A DNA stretch of 59,567 bases from a virus (IMGVR_UViG_3300027971_000004:1-59567); one strand, 5' to 3'; positions 41,948 through 59,567 are shown, counted from the stretch's first letter. Numbers and translations: made by a program. The notes: generated by a model from the letters alone, not told the origin.

Positions 41948-43966
41948 CTACTGTCCCGGGGGAGGGCCTTGTGGCGGCTGATCCTGCGGAGGGCCTCCTT
42001 GCGGGGGCTGACCAGGAGGAGGCCCTGGGGGTGGCGGAGGGGGTGGTGGCACGGCGAAGTCGGCCACATCCATCTGGTTGACCTCGCCCCACTTGGCCAT
42101 GAGGGTGTTGAAGAGTTCCGGCTTTCCGGCCTGCAACATGCCCTGAGCGACAGGCATCATCACCTGCATCAGGTTGTTGAGGTTCTCTGTCTTGGTAGCA
42201 ATGTTGGGCTTCCTCGCGGAGCCGGCTTCGACCCGGTAGTCGTACTCCCTGACAATGGAGTCAGGGTCTTCCTGCTGTACGTGCATCTGCCACGCTTGGG
42301 CTGCCATCGGACCCATGAACGGGGCAACGTCTTGTGGCTGAATCAACCACCTCGCAAGGAGTGCTTCCTTCCTCGCAACGTCCGAAAGAGCGTCTTCCAG
42401 CGTGTTGGCATAATCGTCTGGCCTGACCGAGATTTGCTCGGCCTTCACGTTGGCCTCTGCAGCTGACCGGAACTGATTTCTGGTCATGCCGTAAATTAAC
42501 TCTGTCAGGCCCACTCGCCGGTCGAAGAGGTTCGTCACCTCCGCGATGATCTTGTATAGGTCTTCTGTGACTGCGGGAAGCTGGAAGACTGAGATCACAT
42601 CGTTGACCGACCGGCCGATGGCTTCAGAGATTTCCACAATCTTGAAACCGCCCTCCGACTTCTCAAGCAACTTGCTCTTGAGGTTCTCATCCGCAGCCTT
42701 CGACACGCCAATCAGCACTTGGCTGGACGCTGCAATGCGTGTTGCAAGGAAGGACATCGCCCAATTAATGAATCGAAGCTCACCGATCCCGGGGCGGATC
42801 AGCGACACAGGCCATGAGTAGCCAGGCTTGCCGTGCCACGCCAGAAGTGTGAACGGCCAACCGTTTGGCTCGGCCCAGAAAGGGATGGGCCACTGAGTGT
42901 TCATAAACAGTTGCTGGGGAATGCCCGTCTCGTCCACCTCCTCTTGGAGCATCTTGGGCGGGCAGTTCAGCGGGAAGTCCACGCCCTCGGCAACGACGAT
43001 GTAGCAGTTTGGCCCCATGGCATCGAACTTGCCCTTGAGGTCCTTGTCGGAGTCCTTGAGCCGGTCACCGAATCCAATCTTGGAGTAGACCTCCCAGTAA
43101 CAGATGAGGTCGGCCGTCTTGCCGTTTCTCTTCTGAGTCCTGTACCCACGCTGATCCTCATTCACCCGAGACGAGTAAGACTCGGCGTGACCCTTGAGGT
43201 CTTCAATCGACAGACCAAACTTCGCCGCCACCTCATCGACTGGCTGAACCCGCTTGCGTGCGGCCCAGCGGATGTCTTCAAACTCGTCGGCGTCAGGGTC
43301 CCAAGTCAGGTTGTCGATGGAGTCAAAGAACGACCCAGCCATCTTCACGTTCGACCCAGGTGGCGAATACAGCTCATGCCACCACACGCCAGCACCCTTG
43401 ATGAACGCTTCCTCCACAACCTTCCGAGAGTGACGCTTGAGATCAAGCTCGTTGGGTGTGTAGTTGAGGTAGTCTTCCAAGAGCTTGGAAACAACCTTGC
43501 GGCGCTCAAAGGCGAACTGCTGCTGCTCCATGCCCTGCTGGTACGCCTGCACCCCAGGATCGGGCATCATCACCGGCTGGCCGTCAGGCCCCATCACAGG
43601 GCCTTCTGGACCCATCTGCGGAACCGGGGGCTGCGGGAAGATTCCCAACAGCTGTGGGCCGATGATGGGGAACTGCCTGGCGTTGACCGTCCGGGCAGGG
43701 TTCCGGTGATGAATGACTGCCGAGAACAGACGCACGGCCTCCCAGACACGGTTGACCGTCATCCGAAACGCAGGTGGGTCGATGCCGCGGTTGTAGCCCC
43801 GCTCGCCCATGGCATAACTGTTTTCCCACATAACCGATGGGTCGCTCGCGTAGAACCCCATAGCTTCTTTTGCATCGTCTGTGAACGCCTTCTTGTGCTT
43901 TTCAGCCAAGTCGATGAGGCGGAGCCAGTTCTTGGCTATGGGCGCGAGCGGGTTATCGTTGGACAC
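41948..43966 (-). CDS. Portal protein
   Basis: 672 aa downstream of terL; RSAAEA, Pro/Gln-rich tail; GGGAG RBS. Confidence 0.85.
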   Translation of the reverse strand: MSNDNPLAPIAKNWLRLIDLAEKHKKAFTDDAKEAMGFYASDPSVMWENSYAMGERGYNRGIDPPAFRMTVNRVWEAVRLFSAVIHHRNPARTVNARQFPIIGPQLLGIFPQPPVPQMGPEGPVMGPDGQPVMMPDPGVQAYQQGMEQQQFAFERRKVVSKLLEDYLNYTPNELDLKRHSRKVVEEAFIKGAGVWWHELYSPPGSNVKMAGSFFDSIDNLTWDPDADEFEDIRWAARKRVQPVDEVAAKFGLSIEDLKGHAESYSSRVNEDQRGYRTQKRNGKTADLICYWEVYSKIGFGDRLKDSDKDLKGKFDAMGPNCYIVVAEGVDFPLNCPPKMLQEEVDETGIPQQLFMNTQWPIPFWAEPNGWPFTLLAWHGKPGYSWPVSLIRPGIGELRFINWAMSFLATRIAASSQVLIGVSKAADENLKSKLLEKSEGGFKIVEISEAIGRSVNDVISVFQLPAVTEDLYKIIAEVTNLFDRRVGLTELIYGMTRNQFRSAAEANVKAEQISVRPDDYANTLEDALSDVARKEALLARWLIQPQDVAPFMGPMAAQAWQMHVQQEDPDSIVREYDYRVEAGSARKPNIATKTENLNNLMQVMMPVAQGMLQAGKPELFNTLMAKWGEVNQMDVADFAVPPPPPPPPGPPPGQPPQGGPPQDQPPQGPPPGQ

Positions 43967-43977
43967 GCAGTATCTCC

Positions 43978-44304
43978 CTACTGTCTATTGCCCTTCCGGC
44001 CCTCAAGTTCGGCCACTTTCTTCTCAAGAAGTGCGACTTTCTCGGACAGGATGGCTTCTTTGCCCGCCGGCCGGGGTCCCCAGAAGCCGTATTCCTTCCA
44101 AGCCGGGAACTCTTGGACCCCCGGATCGTCCTTGTGGTGGACGCTGGCCTTCTCAACCCCGCCATAACCCGGGACCACGGCCCAAAGCGTCAGGGTCCGC
44201 GAGGCTGTGGTGGTCACAAACGCCATGACAGGGTCCGCGCCCTCATGGGCGTAGAACAGAACCATGTCGCCAATCTTCACTTCGGGCATTTCGTAGCTAG
44301 TCAT
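43978..44304 (-). CDS. Small SH3-like plus coiled-coil protein
   Basis: IGDMVLFY...; ATGA overlap with terL. Confidence 0.65.
   Translation of the reverse strand: MTSYEMPEVKIGDMVLFYAHEGADPVMAFVTTTASRTLTLWAVVPGYGGVEKASVHHKDDPGVQEFPAWKEYGFWGPRPAGKEAILSEKVALLEKKVAELEGRKGNRQ
43979..43993 (-). promoter_or_regulatory. Putative late-promoter motif
   Basis: GGGCAATAGACAGTA. Confidence 0.6.
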
Positions 44305-45986
44305 TTCCGGCTTCCCATCGGGCCAAGGATCACGCAGGCGTCTTCGGACGCCCGCTCTCGTTTCTTCTTCCTGTCTAAGTAGTCCACCCACCATGGAGTA
44401 GGACCGTAGGTCTTGGGTGGCTTGTGGTACTTCGGCTCATTGGCGCAGAGGTATTCCAACACTTGGCAGGCGTGGACCTCGCCTCGGGTCTGTGGTTCGT
44501 CGGTCACGTAGACCTGGCCGTTGACCGTCGTTGTCTTCTTCCTGTACCGCTTGATTTCCCTGAGGAGGTTCGGACACCCACCCTCTAAAAACTTCAACTT
44601 TGTAGTGCCGTCGCCCTTGATGTGCAGCGCCTGCCTAACGAGAGCCGTGCGGGCCTGGATGTCATCAGACCCCGGAATGAACTGCGTGTTCGTCAACTGG
44701 AAGCGGAACTTGCGCTTCTTGAGTTCCTCGGAGTAAAGCTCATGCGGAAGTCTTCCGGACCCAAGGTCACGCAGCGCACCGCCGTGCATGTCCATGATCC
44801 CGGTGTAGATGTTCTGCTCCAGGGCCTTGGAACAGAACTGCTCTCCCCAGATCAGCGCGTTGCAGTTGCGGATGTACAACTCGTCGTAGATCAGCCAGAA
44901 CTTCTCGTCTGGCGGGATGGCGAGGAAGAGAGTCGCCATGACCGCATGGCCTGGGTCGATCCCCACATAGCGAGTCCAGTCCGATGGGATTCGACCATCA
45001 GGGAGTTCGGACCTCTGCATCATGTGGACTGACGCATTGAAGGTCGGGTACATGAGCGTCGATTCGGTGGTGAACTCACCCTCGGCACGCATGCGGAGTT
45101 CATCCATTCCGAGAGCCGACCACCGTTCGATGTTCTTCTTCTTTTCTTCCGGGTCGATGTGGTCGTTGTCCAGGAATCGAAGGACGAACTTCTTGATGAG
45201 CGGAACTTCCTGGCCCAGCTCCTCGGCCTTATCGGCTCGCTCGCACAATCCAAGGAGCGCGTCGTTCTTGCTCCACGGCATGGCCGACCAGACAAACCGG
45301 CCCTTGCGGTCAGACAAGCGAGCCTGCATTTCGCCCACCCAACGCTCGTTATTAATGTCCTCGTCTATATGTACAAGGTCGGCTTGAAAGCCTTGCGGCG
45401 GTTCCCCCTCAGACGAGAAACAGTAAATGGTCCAGCCGTTGTTGAGTTCAGCCTTGTTGAGGTAGCCAGCGTTCTTCTGCACCCAGGACATGTCTTTGAT
45501 CAGCCGGGGCGGAATCAATGGCGGAGCGGGCTTGGAGTCCTTTTGACGAGGGGCATCGGTCCCGGGATTGAAGGCCCTCCACTTGCCCGTGTCCTGATCT
45601 TTTATGATGCGAAATGCCCCGGCCTTAAACAGCATGGGATAGACCACCATGCCGATGTGCTGCCAGTTCTTCCCGATGATCACAAGGTTGCCGCCCTCCC
45701 TGGGATACTTCCCGTGAGGGTCTTGGCCAGTGGCGGCGCGAGCATCCTCAACGAATGAACACGCACTCTTGCCTGACCGATTGCCGCCGATCACCAATCG
45801 CTCCGATGACATGCACTTGTGGAAGTCATCTTGCTTAGGCATCGGCACGTACAGACGCAACGCCTCAAGGCGACGTTCGGACAGTTCGGCTTGAACGTCC
45901 TTCATCTGCCCAAGAGCGTGCTGCGTCAGCCCGCCGATTGGGCCTTCAACTGGGGGTGGCGGTGAAATCTTGGGGTGCTTTTTCAT
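44301..45986 (-). CDS. terL: Terminase large subunit
   Basis: GGNRSGKS (Walker A), VHIDE (Walker B), GIDPG nuclease motif. Confidence 0.93.
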   Translation of the reverse strand: MKKHPKISPPPPVEGPIGGLTQHALGQMKDVQAELSERRLEALRLYVPMPKQDDFHKCMSSERLVIGGNRSGKSACSFVEDARAATGQDPHGKYPREGGNLVIIGKNWQHIGMVVYPMLFKAGAFRIIKDQDTGKWRAFNPGTDAPRQKDSKPAPPLIPPRLIKDMSWVQKNAGYLNKAELNNGWTIYCFSSEGEPPQGFQADLVHIDEDINNERWVGEMQARLSDRKGRFVWSAMPWSKNDALLGLCERADKAEELGQEVPLIKKFVLRFLDNDHIDPEEKKKNIERWSALGMDELRMRAEGEFTTESTLMYPTFNASVHMMQRSELPDGRIPSDWTRYVGIDPGHAVMATLFLAIPPDEKFWLIYDELYIRNCNALIWGEQFCSKALEQNIYTGIMDMHGGALRDLGSGRLPHELYSEELKKRKFRFQLTNTQFIPGSDDIQARTALVRQALHIKGDGTTKLKFLEGGCPNLLREIKRYRKKTTTVNGQVYVTDEPQTRGEVHACQVLEYLCANEPKYHKPPKTYGPTPWWVDYLDRKKKRERASEDACVILGPMGSRK

Positions 45987-48245: not shown

Positions 48246-49991
48246 TTACGAGCGGACCTGCCACGGGCGGTTGGTAAACGTCGGCTGGCTAACTTGTGGT
48301 GCGGGCGTAGCGTTCCTGTCTTTATACCTCTGCCATATGTCTGCCTCAGTGGTCCCCGGAGGCAGGGTTGGCGCTTGGCCGTATGGCATTCCCTTCGACG
48401 GAGGCTGAATAGATTGCGCCTTGCCTACCGGCGACTGCTTGGATGTGGCGTCGTTGTATACGTTTGAATTTGCTTGGCCATAGTCAGGACCTCTGGTCGG
48501 CTCCAGCATTTGCATGTCCCAGGCGTGGCCGTTCCTAAACGAGTAGCCGGGAACTATCGGGTCGCCAGCCGTCAGTCGGCCAGCCCCCGGCAACTCCCAC
48601 CATGGACTGCCCACAGGCCCGTCGTAAGGCTTGAATGTGTTTGGCAAGCTGGTAGCAAGTTGGCCATACGGAGTCCCCTGCGGCTGCGGCTGAATGGACT
48701 GCGCCTTGCCTGCGGGAGACTGCTTGGCCGCATAACGACTCATGGCGTCGTTGAAGTACTGGTCCTTGCCCTCCGCTGCTGACTTGCCTGTCTTCTTGGA
48801 CATCCAATCGTCTGCTGGCGCGACGTTTTGCTGCGATGCCGACGCATAGATCAGATTCTTTAGCCGGTCGCCGTACGCCTTCCTCTGCAATGGGTCACCG
48901 TACTGGTACTCGTTGTATAGCTGATAGCCAGCGGGCGAGTTCAGCACTTGGCCAACCGCATTGTCCAGCCCCGTCTTCACATAGTCATCGTATGTGGCGG
49001 CGGGGTTCTCGTACCTGCCTGCGGCTTTGTTCTGGAGGAACTGAGAGCGATTTGCGTCTATGCCGGTACGTGGCGGCGTGTAAGTCGAAGGTGCGGGACG
49101 GTCGGTCACGGGTGGGCCGTAAGGATTCGCCGGCCCGCTCGGCGGTGGTGTCGGAGTGCCTACGGCGCTGACGGGAGAGTAGGTGGGCGGCGTGTATGGC
49201 GCCTGCGCGACTGACGGCGAACCCTGCTGCTGCGGCTGGTAGTACCCCTGCTGGTTGGCGTAGTTTCCGTACGCTTGGTTTTGATAAGCCTGTGAGGTTC
49301 CGGGAGCGAAGGACATAGTGCCCTGGAACTGCTGGCCCTGCTGGTTTACGAATGGCTGATACGGAGTGACCTGCGGCTGTGCGAATGTGAACGGATCGCC
49401 CTGACCGCCAAAGGCTTGGTTTAAACGCTGGATCATGCTGTCGCCGTAGTTGGGCGCCATGGACGGGGCACCACCACCAAGACCAGCCTGCTGCATGGCC
49501 TGCTGGTAGTCCAGTCCGGGAGTCATTCCCGCGGTCGGGTCGGTCATGCCGCCAGAGTTGAATGCAACCTGATTCTGCATCCGCTGCTGGTTGAGCTGGT
49601 TGATGAACGCATCCCGCTCAACGAACGGGTCCATGCTCTGGCCCCACGGGGTCTGAGCGGCTCCCATCTGGAACGGAGCTGGGCGCTGGCTTGCGGGCGC
49701 AGTAACGTAAGACCCCTGCGGGTCGCCAGTGACAGTCTGGCTTGCCGGGCGCAGCGTCGGCTTGCTTGGCTGCGAGTACGCCTGATACGGCGTGCCCTGC
49801 GACTGCGGCGGGATCGACTGAGCTTGCCCCTGTTGGGCGTAGGATTGGTAAGGAGTGCCTTGGGTCTTTGGGGCGCTGCTAGGTTTCGCTTGCGGAGGGT
49901 ATGCGTTCGCAGGCCCGAAGGATGGCTGAAACGCCGAGGCGATGTCCAGTTGAGGGCCGCGGGCGTACGGATTAGCGAACGAAGAAGCCAT
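48246..49991 (-). CDS. Gln/Pro/Tyr-rich low-complexity protein
   Basis: 581 aa; repeated AQSI.P...G.PY; AGGAGG RBS. Confidence 0.75.
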   Translation of the reverse strand: MASSFANPYARGPQLDIASAFQPSFGPANAYPPQAKPSSAPKTQGTPYQSYAQQGQAQSIPPQSQGTPYQAYSQPSKPTLRPASQTVTGDPQGSYVTAPASQRPAPFQMGAAQTPWGQSMDPFVERDAFINQLNQQRMQNQVAFNSGGMTDPTAGMTPGLDYQQAMQQAGLGGGAPSMAPNYGDSMIQRLNQAFGGQGDPFTFAQPQVTPYQPFVNQQGQQFQGTMSFAPGTSQAYQNQAYGNYANQQGYYQPQQQGSPSVAQAPYTPPTYSPVSAVGTPTPPPSGPANPYGPPVTDRPAPSTYTPPRTGIDANRSQFLQNKAAGRYENPAATYDDYVKTGLDNAVGQVLNSPAGYQLYNEYQYGDPLQRKAYGDRLKNLIYASASQQNVAPADDWMSKKTGKSAAEGKDQYFNDAMSRYAAKQSPAGKAQSIQPQPQGTPYGQLATSLPNTFKPYDGPVGSPWWELPGAGRLTAGDPIVPGYSFRNGHAWDMQMLEPTRGPDYGQANSNVYNDATSKQSPVGKAQSIQPPSKGMPYGQAPTLPPGTTEADIWQRYKDRNATPAPQVSQPTFTNRPWQVRS

Positions 49992-50161
49992 CAGACATCC
50001 TCCTGCTTTGCGGAATCAGTCCCCATGCCCGACCCTTGCAGCATTCGCAGCTTGGCCATGTCTGCGTACGGATTCTCTTGCCGAGCCTCGGCAATGAGTT
50101 GACGCAGGAAGTCCAGGTTCTGGACGGCTGGATCGCTCATAAGAAGAAGTAGTTCGTCCAT
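49991..50161 (-). CDS. Hypothetical 56-aa protein
   Basis: MDELLLLMSDPAVQNLDFLRQLIAEARQ...; TGATG coupling. Confidence 0.55.
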   Translation of the reverse strand: MDELLLLMSDPAVQNLDFLRQLIAEARQENPYADMAKLRMLQGSGMGTDSAKQEDV

Positions 50162-50203
50162 TTAAAAGAAAACAGCCGGCCGGCTTGCGCCTGCACCGGC
50201 TGT
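50162..50203 (-). terminator. Intrinsic terminator after capsid genes
   Basis: ACAGCCGG/CCGGCTGT stem, inner GGC-GCAA-GCC, then TTTCTTTT. Confidence 0.75.
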
Positions 50204-50229
50204 CCCCCGAAAGCCCATAAGGGCAATAC

Positions 50230-50460
50230 TCAAGTCCCGACCAAGCCGTAGTTCTGCAGCGCAACCTTGAGGCTGGCGTAGTCAGTCACGGCAGCGCTTG
50301 TGGCTCGCGTGGAGCCAGTGGCGCCGAAGAATCCGATGACGGCCGTGGAGGCACCAATCGTCAATCCGGTTGAGCTGCCGCTAAGGTGCTGCAGTTCGTC
50401 CCAGATCGTATTGGCGAGCTGCTGGTTGGCCAGCCCGATGATCAACTGGTTTCTGCTCAT
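50230..50460 (-). CDS. Small capsid-associated protein
   Basis: IGFFGATG...ALQNYGL; GAGG RBS. Confidence 0.65.
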   Translation of the reverse strand: MSRNQLIIGLANQQLANTIWDELQHLSGSSTGLTIGASTAVIGFFGATGSTRATSAAVTDYASLKVALQNYGLVGT

Positions 50461-50468
50461 CAGTTACC

Positions 50469-51110
50469 TCACGCGATGGGAGTGGTGATCAACGCCAGAA
50501 CCGACGAGCCGTCAGAAGTAGTACCAGCCGAGATGGCGTAGCCGATGACGCCACGGCCATTGTCGTTCGCCTGCCCGGTGGTGGAGCCGGTAAGCGCGCT
50601 GGGCGTGGCCCGGCCGGCAGTGGTGCCCGTCGATGCCGCGGCGGTGATCGCAGCGAGGCGGGTGCCTGCCGTGATCGCCGTACCCGAGAGAGCCGCCGAC
50701 ACTTCCGTGGGGCCGTTGACGGTCACCCAGAAGATGTCGTTGATAGCCACGCCGGCCGATGGCAGCCACTCATCGACCACGCCAATCCGCTCCTCGTTGA
50801 GGGAGGCCGAGTAGCCGTTCACTTCCGTGAACAACTTGCCGGCAGCGGTGCTGAACGCGACAACTCGCTTCGGAGCCAAGGCGATGGTCGCCGTGTTCTT
50901 TACAGCAATGCAAACCTTGCGCCGATTGCTGCGAACCTGGCCCGTGATGGGATTCACATCAGTGAACTCCTTCACAACGCCAACGAAGTTGTCGCCGTAT
51001 GAGGCACTGGACTGAATGCCGTGGTAGCTGTCGTTCTTGATCGACTCACCCGAGCCAAGCGAGAACCAAGTCTGACCAAGACCGAATGGAGGATCAACCT
51101 GCAGACCCAT
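50469..51110 (-). CDS. Capsid decoration/cement protein
   Basis: Follows the MCP; GVVDE...DIFWV..GP. Confidence 0.65.
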   Translation of the reverse strand: MGLQVDPPFGLGQTWFSLGSGESIKNDSYHGIQSSASYGDNFVGVVKEFTDVNPITGQVRSNRRKVCIAVKNTATIALAPKRVVAFSTAAGKLFTEVNGYSASLNEERIGVVDEWLPSAGVAINDIFWVTVNGPTEVSAALSGTAITAGTRLAAITAAASTGTTAGRATPSALTGSTTGQANDNGRGVIGYAISAGTTSDGSSVLALITTPIA

Positions 51111-51127
51111 AGTAATCTATTCCTTTC

Positions 51128-52261
51128 TCAGGAGGCGATGATCTTGAAGAAGTTACGCGGCGACTTGAACTTGAGGTTGCCGAGCGTTGACACCACGTAG
51201 CGATATTGCTGCGTAATTTCGTCGTAAAAAGGTCCCTCGCTGTTCATCAGCTGACCTTCCATGCACAGCAGCTCCATGTTGCCGATGCACAGGCCGTAGC
51301 CCGAGTTGGCAGTGGTGGAGACGGCACCAATCGAATTCTCCTGCGAGATTTCGACCCCGTCCAGCTCAAACACATCCGTGAAGCCATAGCTGCGGAGGCC
51401 GTTCGCACGGGAGACGATTACTCGCTCCTTGGCGTCCAGCGTGTTCAGCATGTCGATGTAGAGCCGGCGATCAAGCAGGACCATGTCAATCTGGTCTTCC
51501 TTGGTGTCGTTGCGACGGGTCTGATGCAAACCCTCGCGGATTGCCTTGACGCAGTTGTCCTTCCACGTAGTCGAACCGAAGTACGAAGACGTTGCGTTCA
51601 CAATCACAGGCGTAAAGAAGTCGAACTCCGGATCGGCATAGCCGTTGGGCCAGTTGCCGGCCCGCTGCGAACCGCCGTACGCACCGAGGACGGTCGAAAG
51701 ACCGGCGTAGGTGTCGTTGGGATAGTAGAACGGGTCAAGGGCGCTGACCGACCCACGCGCGGCAGGCGAAGTGCCCGAATCGACCTGGAGCGTCTGGGTC
51801 GCGCCCATGAAGCTCTCAATGCCGTGGAACCGCAGCTCGTTACCCGCGAGGTATCCATCTTGCAGCCACTCACGCGCGAGGTACTGTTCCATGCTCGTCA
51901 GGAGACGGCTGGCCATCTTACCGGCGACGTTTACAAGAGCCTGAGCGGAGCGGTTCTCCAGCATCTCTTTCTTGTAAATAGCGTCTGTCACTTGTGCACC
52001 ACGGTACTCAAGCTCGGCTCGCTTCCAGAGGTTCTGGCGTGCGAACGTACGCGGAGTTTCTCCGTTATTGCCGCTTGGAGTATGATTTCTGTACTGGATT
52101 TCCCAGTCGAAACCCCTTCCTGACATGTTAGTACGGATGTTACCCGACCCCTCAAGGGCGGCGAACACTTTGTACTTCCGCAACGACGCAATTTCTTCAA
52201 CCGCCAAATGGTTGACAATTGTCGTTGCAATACTGCGTGCCCAGTCAGTCGAACTACTCAT
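51128..52261 (-). CDS. Major capsid protein
   Basis: 377 aa after the scaffold gene; pattern (FHGIES, YGF...DGVEI, GNL...PR) typical of HK97-fold podoviral MCPs. Confidence 0.85.
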   Translation of the reverse strand: MSSSTDWARSIATTIVNHLAVEEIASLRKYKVFAALEGSGNIRTNMSGRGFDWEIQYRNHTPSGNNGETPRTFARQNLWKRAELEYRGAQVTDAIYKKEMLENRSAQALVNVAGKMASRLLTSMEQYLAREWLQDGYLAGNELRFHGIESFMGATQTLQVDSGTSPAARGSVSALDPFYYPNDTYAGLSTVLGAYGGSQRAGNWPNGYADPEFDFFTPVIVNATSSYFGSTTWKDNCVKAIREGLHQTRRNDTKEDQIDMVLLDRRLYIDMLNTLDAKERVIVSRANGLRSYGFTDVFELDGVEISQENSIGAVSTTANSGYGLCIGNMELLCMEGQLMNSEGPFYDEITQQYRYVVSTLGNLKFKSPRNFFKIIAS

Positions 52262-53289
52262 CAGATTACTCCATCGTTAACGAGTTGGCCGCGAAGCCGA
52301 TCTTCAAAAGACATCCGCTGGCGAGGTGCCCGCGGCTCTGTGGTTCCTGCACTGCGATTCGGGGTACGGGTTGCGCGTTCCCGGAGGAACTGCATGTTCT
52401 GTTGGGCCACCGGGTCGGCCTGCGGCTGAGGCTGCGGCGCGTACTGCGGGGCGTACTGCGGTGGAGCCGACTGCATCTGCTGGTAGCGGATGTTCAGAAG
52501 GTCGCGCTGCAGCATGCCAGTTGCGTACTTCCAGCGGGCCTCGGGCGAGGTAATCCCGATCTCGGAAGCCTGCTGGATGTACGCCTGGATCGCCTGCCCC
52601 TCGCGGGAGATGTTTCCAGTTTGGTCGTAGAGCCAGTCAGCGTTCTGTCGCTCAAGGTCCGAAACGTAGTTGGTGGCCTGGTACTGGTTGAGCTGCTGCT
52701 GCACCAGTTCCTGAGCCTTCTGCATTGCGACCTGCTCAACGAACGGCTTGAGCGTGTTTTCGGGGTCCGTGACGAACTTGCGAGCGAAGTCGGCCGTGTA
52801 CGCCTGATACTCACGCAGGGCCTGCTGGGCCTCATACGGAGCGGACGGGTCAATGACTTCCTTGCCCGTGGACGGGTCGCGGACGATGTAACCCTTCCAG
52901 GTATCTTTGACCTGGGGCGGCGACCACCACTTGGGGGATTCTTCGGCCTTCGGCTTCGACGCTTCTGCCTGCGAGCGCCGCCACGCCTCAAACTCCTTCT
53001 GGTTGCGAAGGTAGTCCATTCCGGCGGGCACAATCGTTTGGTACTGCTGAAGCTGCTGGGTGGCGTTCTGGTATCCGTTGAACGCCCTGTAGAGGTTCTG
53101 GGCAATCGCCAGATCGTCCTGGCCTTGGAACTCGGGAAGATGGCGGAAGGCTTCGTAGGGAGACGAAAAGCCTTCACTGGCCCGCGACTCTGACTGATAT
53201 CCAGAGGCCGGCGAGGCATCCGCTGGCGACGATGGCGCCTCGGCTACGGCTGCGGACTGATCTGATGGTTCGTTGTATTCGTCTGACAT
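52261..53289 (-). CDS. Capsid scaffolding protein
   Basis: Acidic N-terminus, Q-rich helices, directly before the MCP. Confidence 0.75.
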   Translation of the reverse strand: MSDEYNEPSDQSAAVAEAPSSPADASPASGYQSESRASEGFSSPYEAFRHLPEFQGQDDLAIAQNLYRAFNGYQNATQQLQQYQTIVPAGMDYLRNQKEFEAWRRSQAEASKPKAEESPKWWSPPQVKDTWKGYIVRDPSTGKEVIDPSAPYEAQQALREYQAYTADFARKFVTDPENTLKPFVEQVAMQKAQELVQQQLNQYQATNYVSDLERQNADWLYDQTGNISREGQAIQAYIQQASEIGITSPEARWKYATGMLQRDLLNIRYQQMQSAPPQYAPQYAPQPQPQADPVAQQNMQFLRERATRTPNRSAGTTEPRAPRQRMSFEDRLRGQLVNDGVI

Positions 53290-53321
53290 GTGTCTGCATT
53301 GCCTTCGGGGGGAAAGGACTC

Positions 53322-53337
53322 TGCATGACTAGTGGCC
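53322..53337 (-). promoter_or_regulatory. Degenerate late-promoter motif
   Basis: GGCCACTAGTCATGCA in the gap before the scaffold gene. Confidence 0.4.
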
Positions 53338-53447
53338 GACGAATCGACGTTTTGTTCCAGGTAAGGCTGATTTCGGTAGTCGATGAATTCTGTGCGACTC
53401 AAGTAATCGCATAGCCGAGTCAAAATCTCCGGACTTTCGCCGCAGAT

Positions 53448-54311
53448 TTAGTTCCCGCAGTATCCTTCGCACTCGTCTTGGAAACCAGCGAAAAGACTTT
53501 TCTGCCCGCTCTTTTCGTCGGCGGGCCGTAGATCGACTTCATCCAGCGGAACGCACGCCTTGTGCAAGTATCGGTGAGCGTCCAGCCCGGTGCCGGTGCG
53601 ACACACCTTGTCGATATGGACGGCCCGGTCCCAGCCCTTGGGATCGTCGGTCTTTAGCCGACGCCACTCGGCGTCTGACTTGAACGGGCAGAACACGCAC
53701 GCAGACCGCGGAACCTCGTACGGCAGTCGCTCCCGCAAGTACGCCATGCAATCACCGCGAGTCATTTGCATATCCCACAACGGAAAGTGGACCTTCCAGT
53801 TAGAGGGCTTGGCAAGAAACCGCTGCTTTACTCTGATGACACGCTTTGGCTCATCAAAAGACAAGCCCATGTATTGATGAACAACAACGTCCTTGCTAAC
53901 GGGCCTTCCTGGCTGCGCTCCGACATGCTGCCGAATCAGTCGCTCAATCGGCCTGACCTTAAAATCAGCTGTGCATTGCCGCTGAATGATGCCCTTGTCG
54001 CCGGTCTGCGGATTCAACGTGTAGGCCGGAATGGAAATGAAGTGCCCGCCATCTGTTCGCTGATTTCCGTTTACGTCTGCTCCGCGATCTAAGGCGTCTC
54101 CAAGCCTTCCTGCCGTTGTGATGATGATGGGCGGCCCGCCAAGCGTCTTGAGATAGTCAAGGTGCTTGTAGACCTCATCTGGCTCTTCTTGAACGTCGGC
54201 AAAAATCGCGGCATCAAACTTCGGCACCTCTGGCTCGTCGCCATCGATGCTCATCAGGTAGAGGGCCGTTGACTGCACGCCGGCGCCAAGATTTAGAAAG
54301 TGGTGTTCCAT
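53448..54311 (-). CDS. PAPS-reductase/PP-loop family protein
   Basis: LGAGVQST, FAD, RQCT..FK, SACVFCPF, terminal ECEGYCG. Confidence 0.8.
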   Translation of the reverse strand: MEHHFLNLGAGVQSTALYLMSIDGDEPEVPKFDAAIFADVQEEPDEVYKHLDYLKTLGGPPIIITTAGRLGDALDRGADVNGNQRTDGGHFISIPAYTLNPQTGDKGIIQRQCTADFKVRPIERLIRQHVGAQPGRPVSKDVVVHQYMGLSFDEPKRVIRVKQRFLAKPSNWKVHFPLWDMQMTRGDCMAYLRERLPYEVPRSACVFCPFKSDAEWRRLKTDDPKGWDRAVHIDKVCRTGTGLDAHRYLHKACVPLDEVDLRPADEKSGQKSLFAGFQDECEGYCGN

Positions 54312-54344
54312 GGCGCACAAATGTACACCAAACGTCGCGTTATG

Positions 54345-55028
54345 TCAACGCAAACGAAGAAGCCTGATCGCCTCTTCTGGCGTCATTGATCCCGTACCAG
54401 GAACATAACCTTCCCGCGGGCGAACGGGACCGTCGAAAACCCCAAACGTGCCATCCGGCATCAGCCCAATGTTCCCCTCGTCGTAATCCAGCCAGTGGTG
54501 TCCGCGCGCCCACAGGCTCTGCTCAACATCATGCGCCCTGTCGGTCCACCACTCCCAGTGGCCGTGCCCTTCTGGGCGCCACTTGTCAGCATAGGTCTTA
54601 GCAGCGCGAGGCTGCACTCCAAACGCGACCCCACCTTCAGCCCCCTTGGAGGCGTACGGAACGACGCCTGGGACATCGGGTAGTTCGTACAGCTTTGGGT
54701 CGTAACCGACTTTAAACACGTACCGCTGATCGCCAAATGACGGGAGGGCCTCAAACACCACACTGTCTTGGCCTGACCCAATGGTGTCACCGAGCGTCAG
54801 CCTGTTATCCTTCAAAAATTCGTTGACTCTGTTCCAGTCTTCTGGAGAAGTGTCGGTGTGTCGCAGCAGGTGGTCGGCCAGCATGGCGTGCTGCGAATTG
54901 CGTTTTGCTTCAACCAACCGCTCTGCGACCATGCTGCGCCACGCCGGTTCACCGTGGTAGGCCCTAATGACAGAGCGAACGGCATCGCCTGCTTCGTCCG
55001 CGTGCTGGGCGAATTGGCGTGGGTTCAT
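54345..55028 (-). CDS. Protein-kinase-like effector
   Basis: IGSGQDSVVF (Gly loop), VFKV, WLDYDEGN (catalytic loop), VFDG. Confidence 0.65.
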   Translation of the reverse strand: MNPRQFAQHADEAGDAVRSVIRAYHGEPAWRSMVAERLVEAKRNSQHAMLADHLLRHTDTSPEDWNRVNEFLKDNRLTLGDTIGSGQDSVVFEALPSFGDQRYVFKVGYDPKLYELPDVPGVVPYASKGAEGGVAFGVQPRAAKTYADKWRPEGHGHWEWWTDRAHDVEQSLWARGHHWLDYDEGNIGLMPDGTFGVFDGPVRPREGYVPGTGSMTPEEAIRLLRLR

Positions 55029-55771
55029 TTGTATTCGATCCTGAGCCGCGGAGCCTCTGGAGAGTTTCGCAGCCGGCGAATGACTTCTCCTGCATCATCC
55101 ACCAGTTGCGTTGTGGCACCCCTGCCATAGGCCGCTTGGTCTGCCGCACGGCCTACGGCACGCATAACGTCATCGGCCTTGGAGAGTCCCTTGGCGCCAA
55201 GTTTCGCTGCGGCGAACGGCATGGCTGGAGCGACGAACGCCATCGGGCCACGCACGGGAGCGGCAAGGTAAGTTTCTGGGTCAGTCCCAAAGTCAAAAGC
55301 CATGATGCTTGCTTCGGGCACGCCGTTCTTCCTAGCCACTGGTCGCCAGTCATCGGGTGATCCTGGAGTTCCTGCGGCGGCTGGCGTGTATAGGGCTGAA
55401 GGAAGTGCGCGTGCGGCAAGCGATGCAGCGTCTGAGTAGTTGCCCTGATACGCCTCCTGTGCGGCGCGAAGACCGGTGTCCCTTACTCGCTGCCCCATAG
55501 CCAGGGCGTAGTCCGCAGCCGCCTTCTCGTCATCCCACGCCTCAGTTCCCATGCGTGGATAGAACGAGTTCGCCGCCATGTTCATCCGCAGTTCGCGCGG
55601 GTCATAGGTCGTACCGCGTGCATCGTCATAGATGGCGGTGTCATTCATGCCGCGCAGGGCCTTGTACAGCGGCTGGGACTTGGTTCTCTCCCACTCGGAT
55701 CGCTGGATGGCCTGATCCCTCGCCTCGGATTCCGGAGAACCCTGCATCCATTCGTACCAGGAGTCAGCCAT
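55025..55771 (-). CDS. Hypothetical Ala-rich protein
   Basis: 248 aa, coupled at both ends. Confidence 0.7.
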   Translation of the reverse strand: MADSWYEWMQGSPESEARDQAIQRSEWERTKSQPLYKALRGMNDTAIYDDARGTTYDPRELRMNMAANSFYPRMGTEAWDDEKAAADYALAMGQRVRDTGLRAAQEAYQGNYSDAASLAARALPSALYTPAAAGTPGSPDDWRPVARKNGVPEASIMAFDFGTDPETYLAAPVRGPMAFVAPAMPFAAAKLGAKGLSKADDVMRAVGRAADQAAYGRGATTQLVDDAGEVIRRLRNSPEAPRLRIEYK

Positions 55772-57483
55772 TACTTGTTGAGCCTTTCGATAAGGTCATC
55801 GTCCGACATCATTGGGGCAGCCACTGCGGCACCAATGCCTTGGGTGAGGATGCGCCTTCGCATCTCGTCGGACATGATGTACCGCCTCCCGGCCTCGCCG
55901 GCACCTTGGCGAGTTAGTTTCCCAACCGAATCCAGCTGTTCTCGCAATGCAAAGTTGTGCATTGCCCTTGCGTTATGGGGCGCAAGGTACAGGGCTTGGC
56001 TTGTGATGCGCTGGGCCGCCTCCGGGGAAAGCCCAAGGGCATTCAAATACTCATACATCTCTTGCGGGGTTCCGCCATCGGCCTGAGACACTGGGTGCGA
56101 ACCGCCGAAACGGTCGTACGTGAGCGCCTGCTGCGCCGGAGGCAGGCTGTCGTACCGCATGCCGCTGTACAGCCTCCAGAAGTTAGGCCCCAAATGTTCG
56201 TCGCCAGTGGCGGCACGCATTTGATCGCGAAAAGGTTGATGAGTTTCGTACTGGGGACTTTCTTCTGCGATCCTTGCAACTGGCGAATTGCTCTCATCCA
56301 CCGTTAACCCGCCCATCTTTCTGCCCAATCTCTCCAGTGCGCCTGGAACAACCTTCCCGTAGAAGTGTTCGTAGTTGTCGATGTTGCCGCCGACCTTGTC
56401 AGCGATTGACCTGGGAGAGGCGACCTCAATTGCGCGGTGACCTTTTTGCGCCGCCTCTAGGGCGAGTCGCTTGATCAGAAGGTCTGCCCAAGAATCCTCC
56501 AGCGGAAAGTGAATGCCCTGCGACTTGGGGTCGTTGGACCACTGCCACTCGCCGTCATCGCCCATCTGCATGACATAGCCCTGTCCCTGGACGCGATCCA
56601 GATAGGCAGAGTCAGACTCGCTCGGCAGTTGCGCTGGTGGGCGTTGATGGTTGGCGATAGCTTCTCGGACCTTGCGGTTATGAATCCCTAAGTCAGACTG
56701 CAGTTCGTTTATCCGCAATGCATCGCCGTGAGTGTCGTAGCGTGCGTGAGCAACTGCGTTGGAGTCTATGTCTGACCAGTGAGAGCCAAACTCTGCGTTC
56801 TCTCGCATTGGCTGGCTGAGAAGCATTTCTGTGTAGTTTTTCCCGCCCTGGCCGTAGTTTCCATACTTGGGGCCAGAAACTATCTCGCCACTGCCGATGG
56901 GCTTTGGCCCCACGGGGGAAGACTTGGAAAACCAATCCCGCACATCATTCTCGCTGGGGGGCGTGCTGTGAGTCCTTGCGCGCTCTCCTGGCCGGGGAAC
57001 GCCTTGCGCGTCCGAGGATATGACGGTGACCCCCCATTCCCAGGGCGATTCTTCGCTGCGGTTAAATCCCAGGACCTTGTCGTAATCGCCGTAGCTGCTG
57101 ATTACAGAGCCAGGCGTATAGTATCGCTGGGCAAGGTCTGCCATGCCGCCCGCAGTTGTCGGGTATCGGTTACCCGACTCCGCAAGCAAAAGCTCTTTGT
57201 GCGTGTAGACCGGGCTACGTTCCTTGACTCGCGATAGAAGCTCTTCTCTTGCAACCGCATCGCGGCCGGCGATCAGCGAATCAAAGTCAGCCGCCTTCAG
57301 CTCCCAGCCCGGGACCCCGTCCTTGTATCGCTTGAGAAGCCCAGGAAGTTCTTGCACCCGGACGTTAGCGGGCATCTGCTCAATCGCCCTCTCTAAGCGA
57401 GAGTAGATTCCCGGGCCAGGGTTGTAGGGTAAGTATCCCGCGATCTTGCGGACTGCGTCCCCGGCTTGATCAAAGGTCGCCAT
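55771..57483 (-). CDS. Polyvalent-protein-type virion protein (ExQSD domain)
   Basis: YSRLE, GVPGWEL, GGKNYTE, SHW...AHAR...INELQSD, with a small inserted domain. Confidence 0.6.
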   Translation of the reverse strand: MATFDQAGDAVRKIAGYLPYNPGPGIYSRLERAIEQMPANVRVQELPGLLKRYKDGVPGWELKAADFDSLIAGRDAVAREELLSRVKERSPVYTHKELLLAESGNRYPTTAGGMADLAQRYYTPGSVISSYGDYDKVLGFNRSEESPWEWGVTVISSDAQGVPRPGERARTHSTPPSENDVRDWFSKSSPVGPKPIGSGEIVSGPKYGNYGQGGKNYTEMLLSQPMRENAEFGSHWSDIDSNAVAHARYDTHGDALRINELQSDLGIHNRKVREAIANHQRPPAQLPSESDSAYLDRVQGQGYVMQMGDDGEWQWSNDPKSQGIHFPLEDSWADLLIKRLALEAAQKGHRAIEVASPRSIADKVGGNIDNYEHFYGKVVPGALERLGRKMGGLTVDESNSPVARIAEESPQYETHQPFRDQMRAATGDEHLGPNFWRLYSGMRYDSLPPAQQALTYDRFGGSHPVSQADGGTPQEMYEYLNALGLSPEAAQRITSQALYLAPHNARAMHNFALREQLDSVGKLTRQGAGEAGRRYIMSDEMRRRILTQGIGAAVAAPMMSDDDLIERLNK

Positions 57484-57750
57484 CTAGCACTTCCACGCGC
57501 GCAGGGACTTGTTGATCCGGCTATTCGGGTCGTTGGCGGTTTCTTTGCTGGTGAGCTTGTCCTTCATGCCCTGCATCCTGGCGCAGAATGAATCCCTGCG
57601 AGGGCCGCCTTCCGGCTGCGGAGCCTTGAGGTTCGCATCGTTTGCCCGGTTGTATGCAGCGCGCCCCTTGGCGTTCAGCCCACCGTCCGGGTCTTGGCCT
57701 TCCTTGCGCGTCCACAGGAGATTGCGGACCTTGTCGCCATCGGAGTCCAT
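57484..57750 (-). CDS. DUF6321-like small basic phage protein
   Basis: WTRKEG..GGLNAKGRA..NLK..RRDSFCARM.G...DPNSRINKSLRAWKC; start 57750 or 57756. Confidence 0.75.
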   Translation of the reverse strand: MDSDGDKVRNLLWTRKEGQDPDGGLNAKGRAAYNRANDANLKAPQPEGGPRRDSFCARMQGMKDKLTSKETANDPNSRINKSLRAWKC

Positions 57751-57752
57751 CG

Positions 57753-58046
57753 TCACCTCTTGTGATCTTCGTAGTGCTTGCGATACTTCTGGCGGGGAGA
57801 AGGCTGCTTTATCCCAGTTCTCACGCCAAAGAGAGTTTCGTAAGGCCCTGGCGATTCTCTGGGGTATTGTGCGGCCATGTCGGTTATTTGCCGTTCGATC
57901 CCGCCATGGTCAAGGCCGAGTCGCATGCTGTTGGCTTGTTCCGCCGCCATTGCCTCAGGCCATCCCATTGATAGCAGGCCGGTTCGCAAAACATTCGGAT
58001 CGCCACTGGCAATTAATCTGCGAACAAGCTCACCTTCCTTGTCCAT
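57753..58046 (-). CDS. Hypothetical protein
   Basis: GAGG RBS; coupled. Confidence 0.7.
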   Translation of the reverse strand: MDKEGELVRRLIASGDPNVLRTGLLSMGWPEAMAAEQANSMRLGLDHGGIERQITDMAAQYPRESPGPYETLFGVRTGIKQPSPRQKYRKHYEDHKR

Positions 58047-58088
58047 CAGTCCTCGTCCCTTTCCTCAAAGAGAAACCACCAGGGGTTG

Positions 58089-58463
58089 TCATCCATTGAG
58101 CAAGGACCTGATGATGTTGCCCTCTTGCTCCTTCTGGGCCATCTGGACACGCATGTTGGCTAGGTACTTCTCATGCTCCATGCGCCGCTTCTCACGCTCT
58201 TGGGCCACGCGAGAATCCATCTCGTCTGAGATGGCGGAGTTGATTGCACCAGCCGCTGCGGCGTGATTGGCCATGCCCTGCCGGTGCATGTCCATGGCAA
58301 ACCCAAGCCCGGGATGCCCGAAGGCACCGCCCTGTTCATCTTCCATGCGTTGCTCGCGGTCAGCCTTGGCGCGCTCCAGTCGCATCTGACGCTGCTCTTC
58401 AGCTTGACGCTTCTTGCCGCCGTCTTGGTTCCACGCATCTTCCAGCATGCCCGACATCGCCAT
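58089..58463 (-). CDS. Hypothetical coiled-coil protein
   Basis: Q/E/R/M-rich; follows a late-promoter motif. Confidence 0.7.
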   Translation of the reverse strand: MAMSGMLEDAWNQDGGKKRQAEEQRQMRLERAKADREQRMEDEQGGAFGHPGLGFAMDMHRQGMANHAAAAGAINSAISDEMDSRVAQEREKRRMEHEKYLANMRVQMAQKEQEGNIIRSLLNG

Positions 58464-58473
58464 ATTTCACCCC

Positions 58474-58896
58474 TTACTTGTTAGTGCCCTTCTTGGCACG
58501 CCTAATAGCCATATGTATAAGTGCCTTACCAGCAAGGCGCACAAACGGAAGTTTCCTCTTGGTCGCTTCCTCTTGGAGCCAGTCGCAGATTGTCTCTACG
58601 TTTTCCTCGCACCATGGGATGCCCTTTTCGTCCATGGCCTTGGCGCGAGCATTGCAGGAGCATGTTGCGGAAGCGGTGATCCCGATCTTGGAGAGGAGAG
58701 CCTTCATCTCCGTGCCGGGGCCAGAGCCTAGCTCAATTCCCCTCTTGTCCTGCGGGATTTTTGGGTACGCGGGATGGTCAACATCCACTGTCCATTGGTC
58801 GCCGTCTTGTGAGACAACACACGGCATAACTTCGTCCAAGATGTATCCGCGCTCGTCGCATCGGGCGAGCAAGTGCTTCTTGTGACAAGTAATCAC
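58474..58896 (-). CDS. Conserved-type phage protein (GPGTE...CxC...WC)
   Basis: GTGA overlap with the Cys-rich gene; motif recalled from planctomycete phage-like sequences. Confidence 0.7.
   Translation of the reverse strand: MITCHKKHLLARCDERGYILDEVMPCVVSQDGDQWTVDVDHPAYPKIPQDKRGIELGSGPGTEMKALLSKIGITASATCSCNARAKAMDEKGIPWCEENVETICDWLQEEATKRKLPFVRLAGKALIHMAIRRAKKGTNK
58475..58489 (-). promoter_or_regulatory. Putative late-promoter motif
   Basis: GGGCACTAACAAGTA. Confidence 0.55.
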
Positions 58897-59516
58897 GGCA
58901 ATGGATTCCCTGCGCTCAATGCGTCGTTGACCCCGAAACAAATAGTCAGGCTGTACCCTGAGCCGCCAAAGAGGTTATCTTGCGCGGCCACCGTAAATGT
59001 TCGCCCCACCTCCATGACCCATTTTCCTTCGCCCGCGCCACCAACAGTGTGCCCGCCGTTGCAGGTAGGCTGTGGATCGCAAAAAGACCAAGGGCCAGTT
59101 GGATACAGCCCGGCCTCAATCAGTGAGCCGTTAACAAGAAGGTCATCGTCTACGGTTCCGGTTATTCGTATTCGACAAGGAGTTGAAAACCCCGACGGAA
59201 CCGTCACCGTCCTTGTGTTTGTCACACCCCGATTGCAACAAACAGATGGGGGAACGGCGAAAGTTTCTGCCTTAGAGTCAGAAACGCTGACGCAATATCC
59301 TCCGCATGGGTCGGGAATGCACGGAATCCCGGCGCCAATAAACGTCCTGCCGTCCTCCTCGCAACTGGCCTGTGTCTCTTGATAGCAGCTGCCAAACACT
59401 GTGTCACAACAAGCACCAGGGCAGGGGTTTGGATCACAAGGGACTCCGTAGCCGAGCCAATCGCCGCCAAGTTCTGTGCAAGTCTCTTCGTCCGCTACCT
59501 GGGTGCAACCAAACAC
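58893..59516 (-). CDS. Cys-rich GACC-repeat protein, C-terminal 207 of 261 aa
   Basis: Two GACCD.VFG.C....C...G....G.G.PC.P.PC units followed by a beta domain. Confidence 0.85.
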   Translation of the reverse strand: MFGCTQVADEETCTELGGDWLGYGVPCDPNPCPGACCDTVFGSCYQETQASCEEDGRTFIGAGIPCIPDPCGGYCVSVSDSKAETFAVPPSVCCNRGVTNTRTVTVPSGFSTPCRIRITGTVDDDLLVNGSLIEAGLYPTGPWSFCDPQPTCNGGHTVGGAGEGKWVMEVGRTFTVAAQDNLFGGSGYSLTICFGVNDALSAGNPLP

Positions 59517-59567
59517 CGGATCGCAGCAAGCTCCACCGCACGGCGTGGATTGGCAAGTCCCGCTACA
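59517..59567. repeat. Terminal direct repeat, copy 2
   Basis: Identical to 1-51. Confidence 0.95.

Follow-up and report, generated by a model that had tools for sequence, protein, structure and literature searches.

The window analysed here is a virus record of 59,567 bases (IMGVR_UViG_3300027971_000004). Its minus strand carries a block of genes that begins, in transcription order, with a Cys-rich protein and runs through a putative scaffold protein and the major capsid protein (MCP) to the large terminase and portal (Table 1). Within this block, six adjacent genes of a longer array encode proteins of 227, 248, 570, 90, 97 and 124 aa, each of which carries close to one terminus a related peptide of about 11 residues, referred to here as the tag. 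The tag genes share a tight gene block with the scaffold and capsid genes; the spacing between array genes ranges from -49 to +42 bases, and the last gene of the array, encoding a PAPS-reductase-like protein, lies 158 bases upstream of the scaffold gene. Comparison of the sequences within the window and among related phages indicates that the tag is real, terminal and selected at the protein level.

An earlier note on this DNA had described a terminal motif, divergent at the DNA level, on six adjacent and unrelated proteins. All six peptides were found as quoted, and the proteins carrying them form six separate BLAST families. The core of the motif, G[DEN].[VI]R.[LIV], has six matches in the 79 open reading frames (ORFs) of the window (18,593 aa), confined to the six adjacent array proteins, and every one lies near a terminus, as the note had held, at a distance of 1–13 residues. 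Four of the tags are N-terminal (residues 2–21) and two are C-terminal. Residue shuffles (2000 trials, 84 ORFs, 17,904 aa) gave a mean of 0.235 core matches with a maximum of 3. Scored with a matrix, the six tags reach 21.3–23.5 bits, whereas no other site of the window exceeds 12.9. The DNA encoding the tags is 50.5% identical and all four Gly codons (GGC, GGA, GGG and GGT) are used; because the codons differ, the tag is conserved at the protein level and is not a DNA repeat. The core pattern was picked after the data were seen, and the independent test of the motif comes from other loci.

Two weaker echoes of the motif in the earlier note did not hold up. The peptide AYGDRLKNLI in the 581-aa protein scored 7.8 bits, or 11.7 after iteration of the matrix, and FEDRLRGQL at the C-terminus of the scaffold scored below 6 bits, neither being significant. 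For the late-promoter motif said to precede the array, a scan with a sigma-70-like consensus, which is blind to other kinds of late promoter, showed no excess, with two promoter-like sites in 50000–59567 against 2.7 in shuffles. The C-terminus of the 570-aa protein carries a looser tag-like helix; the ending DDLI[DE]RLNQ recurs in many of its relatives, which is weak evidence.

Table 1. Genes and tags of the window, in transcription order within each group.
Feature	Coordinates	Strand	Remarks
Cys-rich protein	58893-59567	minus	first gene of block
155-aa protein	58474-58941	minus	basic, conserved, untagged
124-aa protein	58089-58463	minus	charged; C-terminal tag
97-aa protein	57753-58046	minus	N-terminal tag directly after Met; singleton family in set
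DUF6321 protein	57484-57756	minus	90 aa from GTG, 88 from ATG at 57750; basic, N-terminal tag
570-aa protein	55771-57483	minus	predicted GNAT-like core; N-terminal tag and looser C-terminal DDDLIERLNK
248-aa protein	55025-55771	minus	C-terminal tag; fold without assignment
227-aa protein	54345-55028	minus	predicted protein-kinase-like fold; order N-terminal tag, tether, kinase domain
PAPS-reductase-like protein	53448-54320	minus	PHROG 424, E 4.1e-35; between tagged array and scaffold gene
Putative scaffold protein	52261-53289	minus	immediately upstream of MCP gene and overlapping it
Major capsid protein (MCP)	51128-52261	minus	PHROG 9953 'major head protein', E 6.6e-5
56-aa ORF	49991-50161	minus	not caught by longest-ORF calling
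Large terminase	44301-45986	minus	PHROG 2, E 3e-13
Portal	41948-43966	minus	PHROG 156, E 1.3e-10
Tag EQEGNIIRSLL	58098-58130	minus	residues 112-122 of 124-aa protein; 21.9 bits
Tag DKEGELVRRLI	58011-58043	minus	residues 2-12 of 97-aa protein; 23.5 bits
Tag DSDGDKVRNLL	57715-57747	minus	residues 4-14 of 90-aa ORF, 2-12 from ATG; 22.8 bits
Tag DQAGDAVRKIA	57439-57471	minus	residues 5-15 of 570-aa protein; 22.1 bits
Looser tag-like helix DDDLIERLNK	55774-55803	minus	C-terminus of 570-aa protein; 7.2 bits, below threshold
Ala/Gly/Pro-rich element	55774-55860	minus	C-terminal part of 570-aa protein
Tag DDAGEVIRRLR	55067-55099	minus	residues 225-235 of 248-aa protein; 21.3 bits
Tag DEAGDAVRSVI	54966-54998	minus	residues 11-21 of 227-aa protein; 22.8 bits

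The tag in related phages

The 570-aa protein has 240 homologues among metagenome-derived proteins, and an alignment of 26 of these led to 37 related IMG/VR loci; a search with the 570-aa protein as a single sequence had found none, whereas the alignment-based scan did recover loci. A matrix built from the six window tags only gave 69 matches of at least 12 bits in the 899 plus-strand ORFs of the 37 loci, compared with 3 in shuffles. Of these matches, 62 lie within 25 residues of a terminus, a zone that holds 25% of all positions. The matching proteins belong to 10 families, all encoded 0.4–6.3 kb upstream of the scaffold gene and on the same strand. Iteration of the matrix raised the count to 92 matches against 1 in shuffles, with 82 terminal and 16 families represented; a few of the matches are the N-termini of proteins encoded about 3 kb downstream of the scaffold gene. 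Wherever longest-ORF calling had added residues ahead of the tag, a GTG or ATG codon stands directly before the tag Asp, so the small tagged proteins start with Met-Asp-x-x-Gly-Asp.

Whether the motif arose by chance or from sequence composition, or is a DNA signal that happens to be translated, was tested, and this is scarcely credible. A pattern defined post hoc, and C-terminal tags that lie shortly upstream of the start of the next gene, would fit such an origin. The excess over shuffled sequence in the window and again in the independent loci does not support it, however, and neither do the differing codons at synonymous positions or the position of the N-terminal tags downstream of a start codon, not upstream of one. 

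A blind DNA pattern for M-D-x-x-G-D-K-I-R-x-L was then run over 2.9 million IMG/VR contigs and gave 46 matches in 45 loci. All but three of the matches (43/46) fall in three small families of the same lineage, with 18, 13 and 12 members, and 43 of the 45 loci have the scaffold, MCP or array genes of the lineage within 4 kb; the remaining two loci resemble chance matches. These results indicate that the tag is confined to one phage lineage. A matrix scan of the pattern loci added 76 matches, 66 of them terminal and some in new families, and some of the tagged proteins in these relatives are only about 50–90 residues long. Within families the tag is retained to differing degrees. The 248-aa family has it at the C-terminus in 12/12 members and the 124-aa family in 10/24, while positions D5 and G8 of the tag are at least 90% conserved in the 570-aa family (116 homologues). 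The set of carriers differs from genome to genome.

Homologues of the 227-aa protein present the same domain behind differing N-terminal versions, such as EKVAEVIARLAGQAPPP or LDEIAELAARLAQSAPPPPGPP. A second protein, P0130, has a 27-residue N-terminus that is near-identical to that of the window 227-aa protein, a single D/E exchange setting the two apart (93% identity over 12% of the query). In P0130, however, the body behind it is similar to the ART-PolyVal-like family that relatives encode. Similarly, the part shared by the window 227-aa protein and the ART-like protein of a relative is restricted to 15 of 18 N-terminal residues. The occurrence of one 27-residue module on two different bodies indicates that the tag module is exchanged between unrelated proteins, and the description of the tag as portable in the earlier note was therefore apt.

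Several other features of these loci were observed. The 56-aa ORF of the window contains VQNLDFLRQLIAEAR, with the D-x-[LI]-R-x-L-I core of the tag at a score below threshold (about 7–9 bits in relatives); its family is kept in 29 related ORFs, between the capsid gene and that of the Q-rich 581-aa protein. Cys-rich proteins with CC..C motifs and the conserved 155-aa basic protein precede the array in the window and in relatives, both being untagged, and in one relative (L009) the two are joined as a single 259-aa protein. The PAPS-reductase-like gene is present in only five sources of the set. The relatives derive from lake metagenomes. Assignment of a host from metagenome-assembled genome bins was rejected, as the bins that hold ten of the loci are assigned to six or more unrelated lineages, most likely through mis-binning of phage contigs.

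Carrier proteins and their homologues

The 90-aa protein contains the Pfam domain DUF6321 (PF19846; E 1.5e-21, 77.2 bits against a cut-off of 28.5) at residues 21–88, and its tag lies outside the domain. Among the DUF6321 proteins of the lineage (13-sequence alignment) the tag residues D6, R9 and L11 are invariant and the linker behind the tag is variable, with 12 of the 13 reaching the matrix threshold of 12 bits. The domain was found by tblastn in 535 phage records, mostly of cyanophages, and among the 40 matches listed the alignment starts at query residues 10–26. In Synechococcus phage MinM2 the DUF6321 protein begins at the domain itself and has no tag. In S-SCSM1 the domain forms the end of a 517-aa protein recorded as 'virion protein', and in the T4-like cyanophage S-CAM4 (Synechococcus) it stands behind another of the small domains that bear the tag in this lineage, both being joined in gp151 (L041), an untagged protein of 142 aa with a different N-terminus. 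A full-text literature search returned no paper on DUF6321. The N-terminal extension of S-CAM4 gp151 holds two L-x-E triplets, the form of the T4 prohead-protease site, and the S-CAM4 lineage may use a T4-type targeting propeptide in place of the tag.

A second small family (family 13) consists of the tag and a DUF5754-like domain. Its homologues align from about residue 14 in nine of the 15 matches listed, and from residues 4–22 over all 15. In Vibrio phage ICP1 the DUF5754-like domain is the C-terminal part of a protein annotated 'capsid protease', the gene of which lies between those of the portal and scaffold. Based on the S-SCSM1 and ICP1 annotations, the same domains occur in a head or virion context in other phages. 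For both domains the homologues outside the phage group (MinM2, S-SCSM1, S-CAM4 and ICP1) are without the tag, a point on which the earlier note had proposed its motif be judged.

A Foldseek search of the PDB with the AlphaFold2 (AF2) model of the 227-aa protein found no fewer than 500 matches at E<=1e-3, with the best at E 2.1e-6. Nearly all of the 50 matches listed are protein kinases or pseudokinases, one being the kinase domain of a lanthipeptide synthetase. Residues G86, K106, D181, N186 and D199 are invariant in the family (14 sequences), and a bilobal fold, Gly-rich loop, Lys, catalytic D-x4-N and DFG-like Asp can all be recognized. The 227-aa protein is therefore predicted to have a protein-kinase fold and to be a kinase-like enzyme.

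For the model of the 570-aa protein, acyltransferases of the GNAT fold and proteins containing GNAT-like domains make up nearly all of the best 50 matches by VIA-align, at Z values of 6.6–8.8. These values are middling but consistent and suggest a GNAT-like core, in terms of fold only and not of specificity. No match was obtained with the 570-aa profile against PDB sequences, nothing at E<=1e-3 with the model in Foldseek against the PDB, and only unnamed viral clusters in the ESM Atlas. The model did give 16 matches at E<=1e-3 in BFVD (best E 3.8e-9), to uncultured-phage proteins of 763–1439 aa, of which two are labelled 'Large polyvalent protein associated domain'.

The GNAT-like core bears on a possibility considered unlikely, namely that the tag is read by an enzyme that modifies or processes the tagged proteins, one candidate being the GNAT-like protein acting on Met-Asp N-termini, or by a host factor, for instance a protease, a chaperone or a common host target. 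Many N-terminal tags do start directly with Met-Asp, the VIA-align matches listed for the 570-aa model include the N-terminal acetyltransferases NatD, Naa10, Naa50 and RimI, and short terminal motifs on unrelated proteins are typical of docking to a common factor. However, C-terminal tags and tags 5–10 residues into a protein would be unreadable by an N-terminal acetyltransferase, tagged genomes exist without the GNAT-like protein, the kinase-like and ART-like proteins are found in some genomes only, and the Z values speak for a fold and not for a specificity.

Fused forms of the 570-aa family, 1,355–1,389 aa in length, are present in four distant relatives (L032, L033, L037 and L038). These forms extend at the C-terminus with sequence that bears no relation to the array proteins encoded nearby, and no motif-marked junctions were found in them; in L037 the peptide GSTVRSLINSG occurs about 100 residues from the C-terminus of the fused form. 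The window 570-aa protein has a window-specific insertion of 62 residues (residues 121–182) with 42% identity (E 2e-4) to a 3,787-aa giant protein of F116-like Pseudomonas phages, variously annotated as a structural protein, a methyltransferase and an internal virion polymerase. A scan of the F116-type giant for the motif gave three loose matches, none convincing. In the relatives, the IRAYHGSPYDF family matches ART-PolyVal at E 1.8e-5 and 25.9 bits, below the Pfam cut-off of 31.2.

These forms are relevant to a further explanation, in which the tag is left over from the junctions of a fused polyvalent ancestor and persists through descent, with no function of its own today. The likeness of the 570-aa model to large multi-domain phage proteins, the 62-residue match to the F116-like giant, the ART-PolyVal-like proteins of the relatives and the existence of the fused forms would all suit such an ancestry. 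It is nevertheless very improbable, given that the giant has no convincing copy of the motif and that the fused forms add unrelated C-terminal sequence instead of neighbouring array proteins. In addition, the residues of the tag do not change within a family although the linkers beside it do, which argues for present-day selection, and close relatives show the tag transferred from one body to another, unrelated one.

The remaining carriers are less well characterized. The 248-aa protein has no Pfam or PHROG match and its ESM Atlas model is poor (0.44 in predicted local distance difference test, pLDDT); Atlas leads below the bar, including a P22 gp16-like cluster at 0.83, were not used. No Pfam or PHROG family was assigned to the 124-aa protein. 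The DUF6321 protein, in its 88-aa form, and the 97-aa protein are basic, with isoelectric points of 9.69 and 9.1 respectively. The earlier note had regarded the array as one of effectors, which suits the several carriers that are enzyme- or effector-like (predicted kinase fold, GNAT-like, ART-PolyVal-like) but is too narrow a term, as several others are tiny basic proteins. It had also seen in the array a split version of polyvalent proteins. With a kinase fold, a GNAT-like fold with polyvalent-associated matches and ART-PolyVal-like proteins among the carriers the link is reasonable, although the six window proteins are separate ORFs, not one polypeptide with two or more effector domains.

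Candidate partners of the tag

Very probably, the motif is under selection as a portable peptide by which its carriers dock to some shared partner. In the AF2 model of the 570-aa protein (116 sequences; pLDDT 79, predicted TM-score 0.67), residues 1–18 and 554–570 have pLDDT below 50, with short helices at 8–13 and 561–568. In that of the 227-aa protein (pLDDT 88.8), the tag lies in a helix at residues 3–24 (pLDDT 55–64) followed by a linker at 24–30 (below 50). Pro/Ala-rich tethers such as AQSAPPPPGPP are found in homologues. From these models the tags are predicted to be short helices on flexible tethers, and the two models and the homologue tethers agree in separating a terminal peptide from the protein body by a flexible linker. 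A second C-terminal element was also observed, consisting of a short hydrophobic Ala/Gly/Pro-rich stretch (QG[IV]GA[AS]..AP.. or YGLLAPIAAGAA) followed by acidic residues. Apart from the window it was located in relatives, for example at L010:7301-8143 and L014:11563-12396, and it is present in 18/35 members of the 570-aa family, 10/14 ART-like proteins and one kinase-like protein, by a pattern picked after the data were seen.

The 570-aa family was considered as the receptor and ruled out, since it is absent from 5/5 tagged lineage genomes tested, four of them at least 90% complete, while 5/5 positive controls were matched. Its absence leaves the structural proteins, which are common to all tagged genomes, as conserved receptor candidates. 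Mean column identity (32 sequences) is 80% for the MCP and 63% for the scaffold. The scaffold family, present in 37/38 sources, has no Pfam or PHROG match, and its putative role is assigned from its position, its overlap with the MCP gene and its acidity (isoelectric point 4.95). The scaffold and MCP are thus both candidate receptors for the tag. A predicted complex of MCP, scaffold and the tagged DUF6321 protein gave an ipSAE (interaction prediction score from aligned errors) of 0.00 in two runs without controls, which speaks neither for nor against binding. In every scaffold examined, the best matrix site is a conserved internal SREGQAIQAYI (residues 228–238 of the window scaffold), with a faint likeness to the tag at 7–9 bits, which is not significant.

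The partner could instead lie among the array proteins themselves or be a non-structural phage protein, with the tags holding together an unpackaged multi-enzyme complex in the cytoplasm. The genes lie together with little space between them, and possible tag-like elements occur at both ends of the 570-aa and 227-aa proteins, as would be expected of bridging subunits. Such a complex is rather unlikely in view of the missing 570-aa family, since no other large protein recurs in most arrays. That the set of carriers varies is easier to reconcile with one fixed receptor for all than with a complex of fixed make-up, and 11-residue tags on basic proteins of 50 aa are hard to explain as those of subunits.

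Proposed capsid targeting and known systems

The interpretation favoured here, at roughly even confidence, is that the motif directs proteins to the capsid in this lineage specifically, much as the capsid targeting sequence (CTS) does in phage T4 or as cargo peptides do in encapsulins. The tag would be a docking peptide of about 11 residues with an acidic start, a Gly and an amphipathic turn, [DE]-x-[IV]-R-x-[LI]-[LIR], placed at the extreme N- or C-terminus and tethered flexibly to the protein body. Its proposed target is one conserved part of the procapsid during assembly, which would be the scaffold core or else the side of the capsid protein that faces inwards. Tagged proteins would thereby become enclosed in the head and be delivered together with the DNA when the phage next infects a cell. 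The load would be changeable, comprising small basic proteins, the kinase-like and GNAT-like enzymes and, in relatives, ART-PolyVal-like enzymes. Host-directed enzymes encoded with late structural genes would make most sense if packed for the next infection.

The internal proteins of T4 are described as a diverse, quickly changing group of small basic proteins and enzymes having in common only a CTS that directs them into the scaffolding core, foreign proteins being carried too (PMC3012670; PMC9026906). The CTS is cut off at a defined site by the prohead protease, and in T4 Alt both termini are propeptides (PMC9026906). The tag resembles the CTS of IPI, IPII, IPIII and Alt in being a short terminal peptide that is the sole feature common to small basic proteins and enzymes encoded with head genes, and possible tag-like elements at both ends of some proteins recall Alt. 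It differs in having no sequence likeness to the CTS, in belonging to a different phage lineage, and in standing at either terminus, whereas the CTS is at the extreme N-terminus of head-internal proteins. No shared motif or cleavage motif was found behind the tags, and Pfam and PHROGs gave no hit to a prohead protease for the 18 proteins of the head module; the tag is for these reasons probably not removed.

Encapsulin cargo peptides are short terminal peptides that, on a flexible tether, mark unrelated cargo for a shell of the HK97 fold. The same tether architecture is found here, although in a tailed phage with scaffold, portal and terminase, with another consensus and with a putative binding to the shell. 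Prohead proteases and scaffold proteins have C-terminal targeting tails, as in the HK97 protease, the helix-turn-helix of the P22 scaffold and the herpesvirus protease and scaffold, and with these a terminal segment docks on the inner capsid surface or on the scaffold during assembly. The annotated capsid protease of ICP1 offers a link to these, as its C-terminal part is one of the small domains that are tagged here; in those systems each tail serves one protein, whereas the tag is shared by at least a dozen families. For polyvalent proteins it has been argued that enzymes whose genes lie among the late structural ones are packaged (Iyer et al. 2017, PMC5512222). Common to polyvalent proteins and the array are the ART-PolyVal match (below threshold), the GNAT-like domain, the polyvalent-associated BFVD matches and the location among late virion genes. 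The array differs from them in that each protein is encoded separately, with its own start and stop, and is tagged, and no MuF or portal fusion was found with Pfam and PHROGs.

A number of observations weigh against capsid targeting. Binding partner, encapsidation and injection are steps that we infer. Looser variants such as LDDLIRRVG and DDAGRxIAGLL are common in relatives, and their equivalence to the tag is an assumption. Two array genes, those of the 155-aa and PAPS-reductase-like proteins, are untagged. The occurrence of the tag at either terminus, together with the lack of a detected protease, is unlike T4. Mimicry of the scaffold tail was rejected on its matrix score of below 6 bits. 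A search of 50,697 phage records gave no match to the MCP, and the lineage has no cultured member among them. Finally, the C-terminal EEAIRLLR of the 227-aa protein was modelled as ordered (pLDDT about 94) and may be part of the fold rather than a free tag.

A more specific version of capsid targeting is put forward tentatively, by analogy with the encapsulin peptides. In a tailed-phage lineage with no prohead protease detected, the tag would be their phage counterpart, an uncleaved cargo peptide that operates at either terminus and fills the head with a swappable arsenal of kinase-like, GNAT-like and ART-like enzymes and small basic DNA-associated proteins. New cargo would be gained by recombination of the tag of about 11–27 residues onto another body, as suggested by the P0130/P0121 pair.

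Capsid-targeting and cargo-loading peptides are a known kind, to which the tag, by analogy, would be a new addition with a proposed function. No description of the motif was found in the literature on capsid targeting, ejection-protein incorporation and cargo-loading peptides, as covered by titles and the starts of abstracts. If capsid targeting is correct, the tag would be a second independent case, beside T4, of one short peptide that packs changeable proteins for injection, here functioning on either terminus and, as it appears, with no proteolytic step. New cargo would be recruited by swapping of the tag module, and the injected arsenal of an uncultured lineage could be read from sequence by means of the tag, which might also serve as a small label with which to load HK97-type capsids with foreign proteins. 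Even with another partner, the tag is a clear short linear motif that lends itself to testing and connects at least a dozen phage protein families otherwise lacking annotation.

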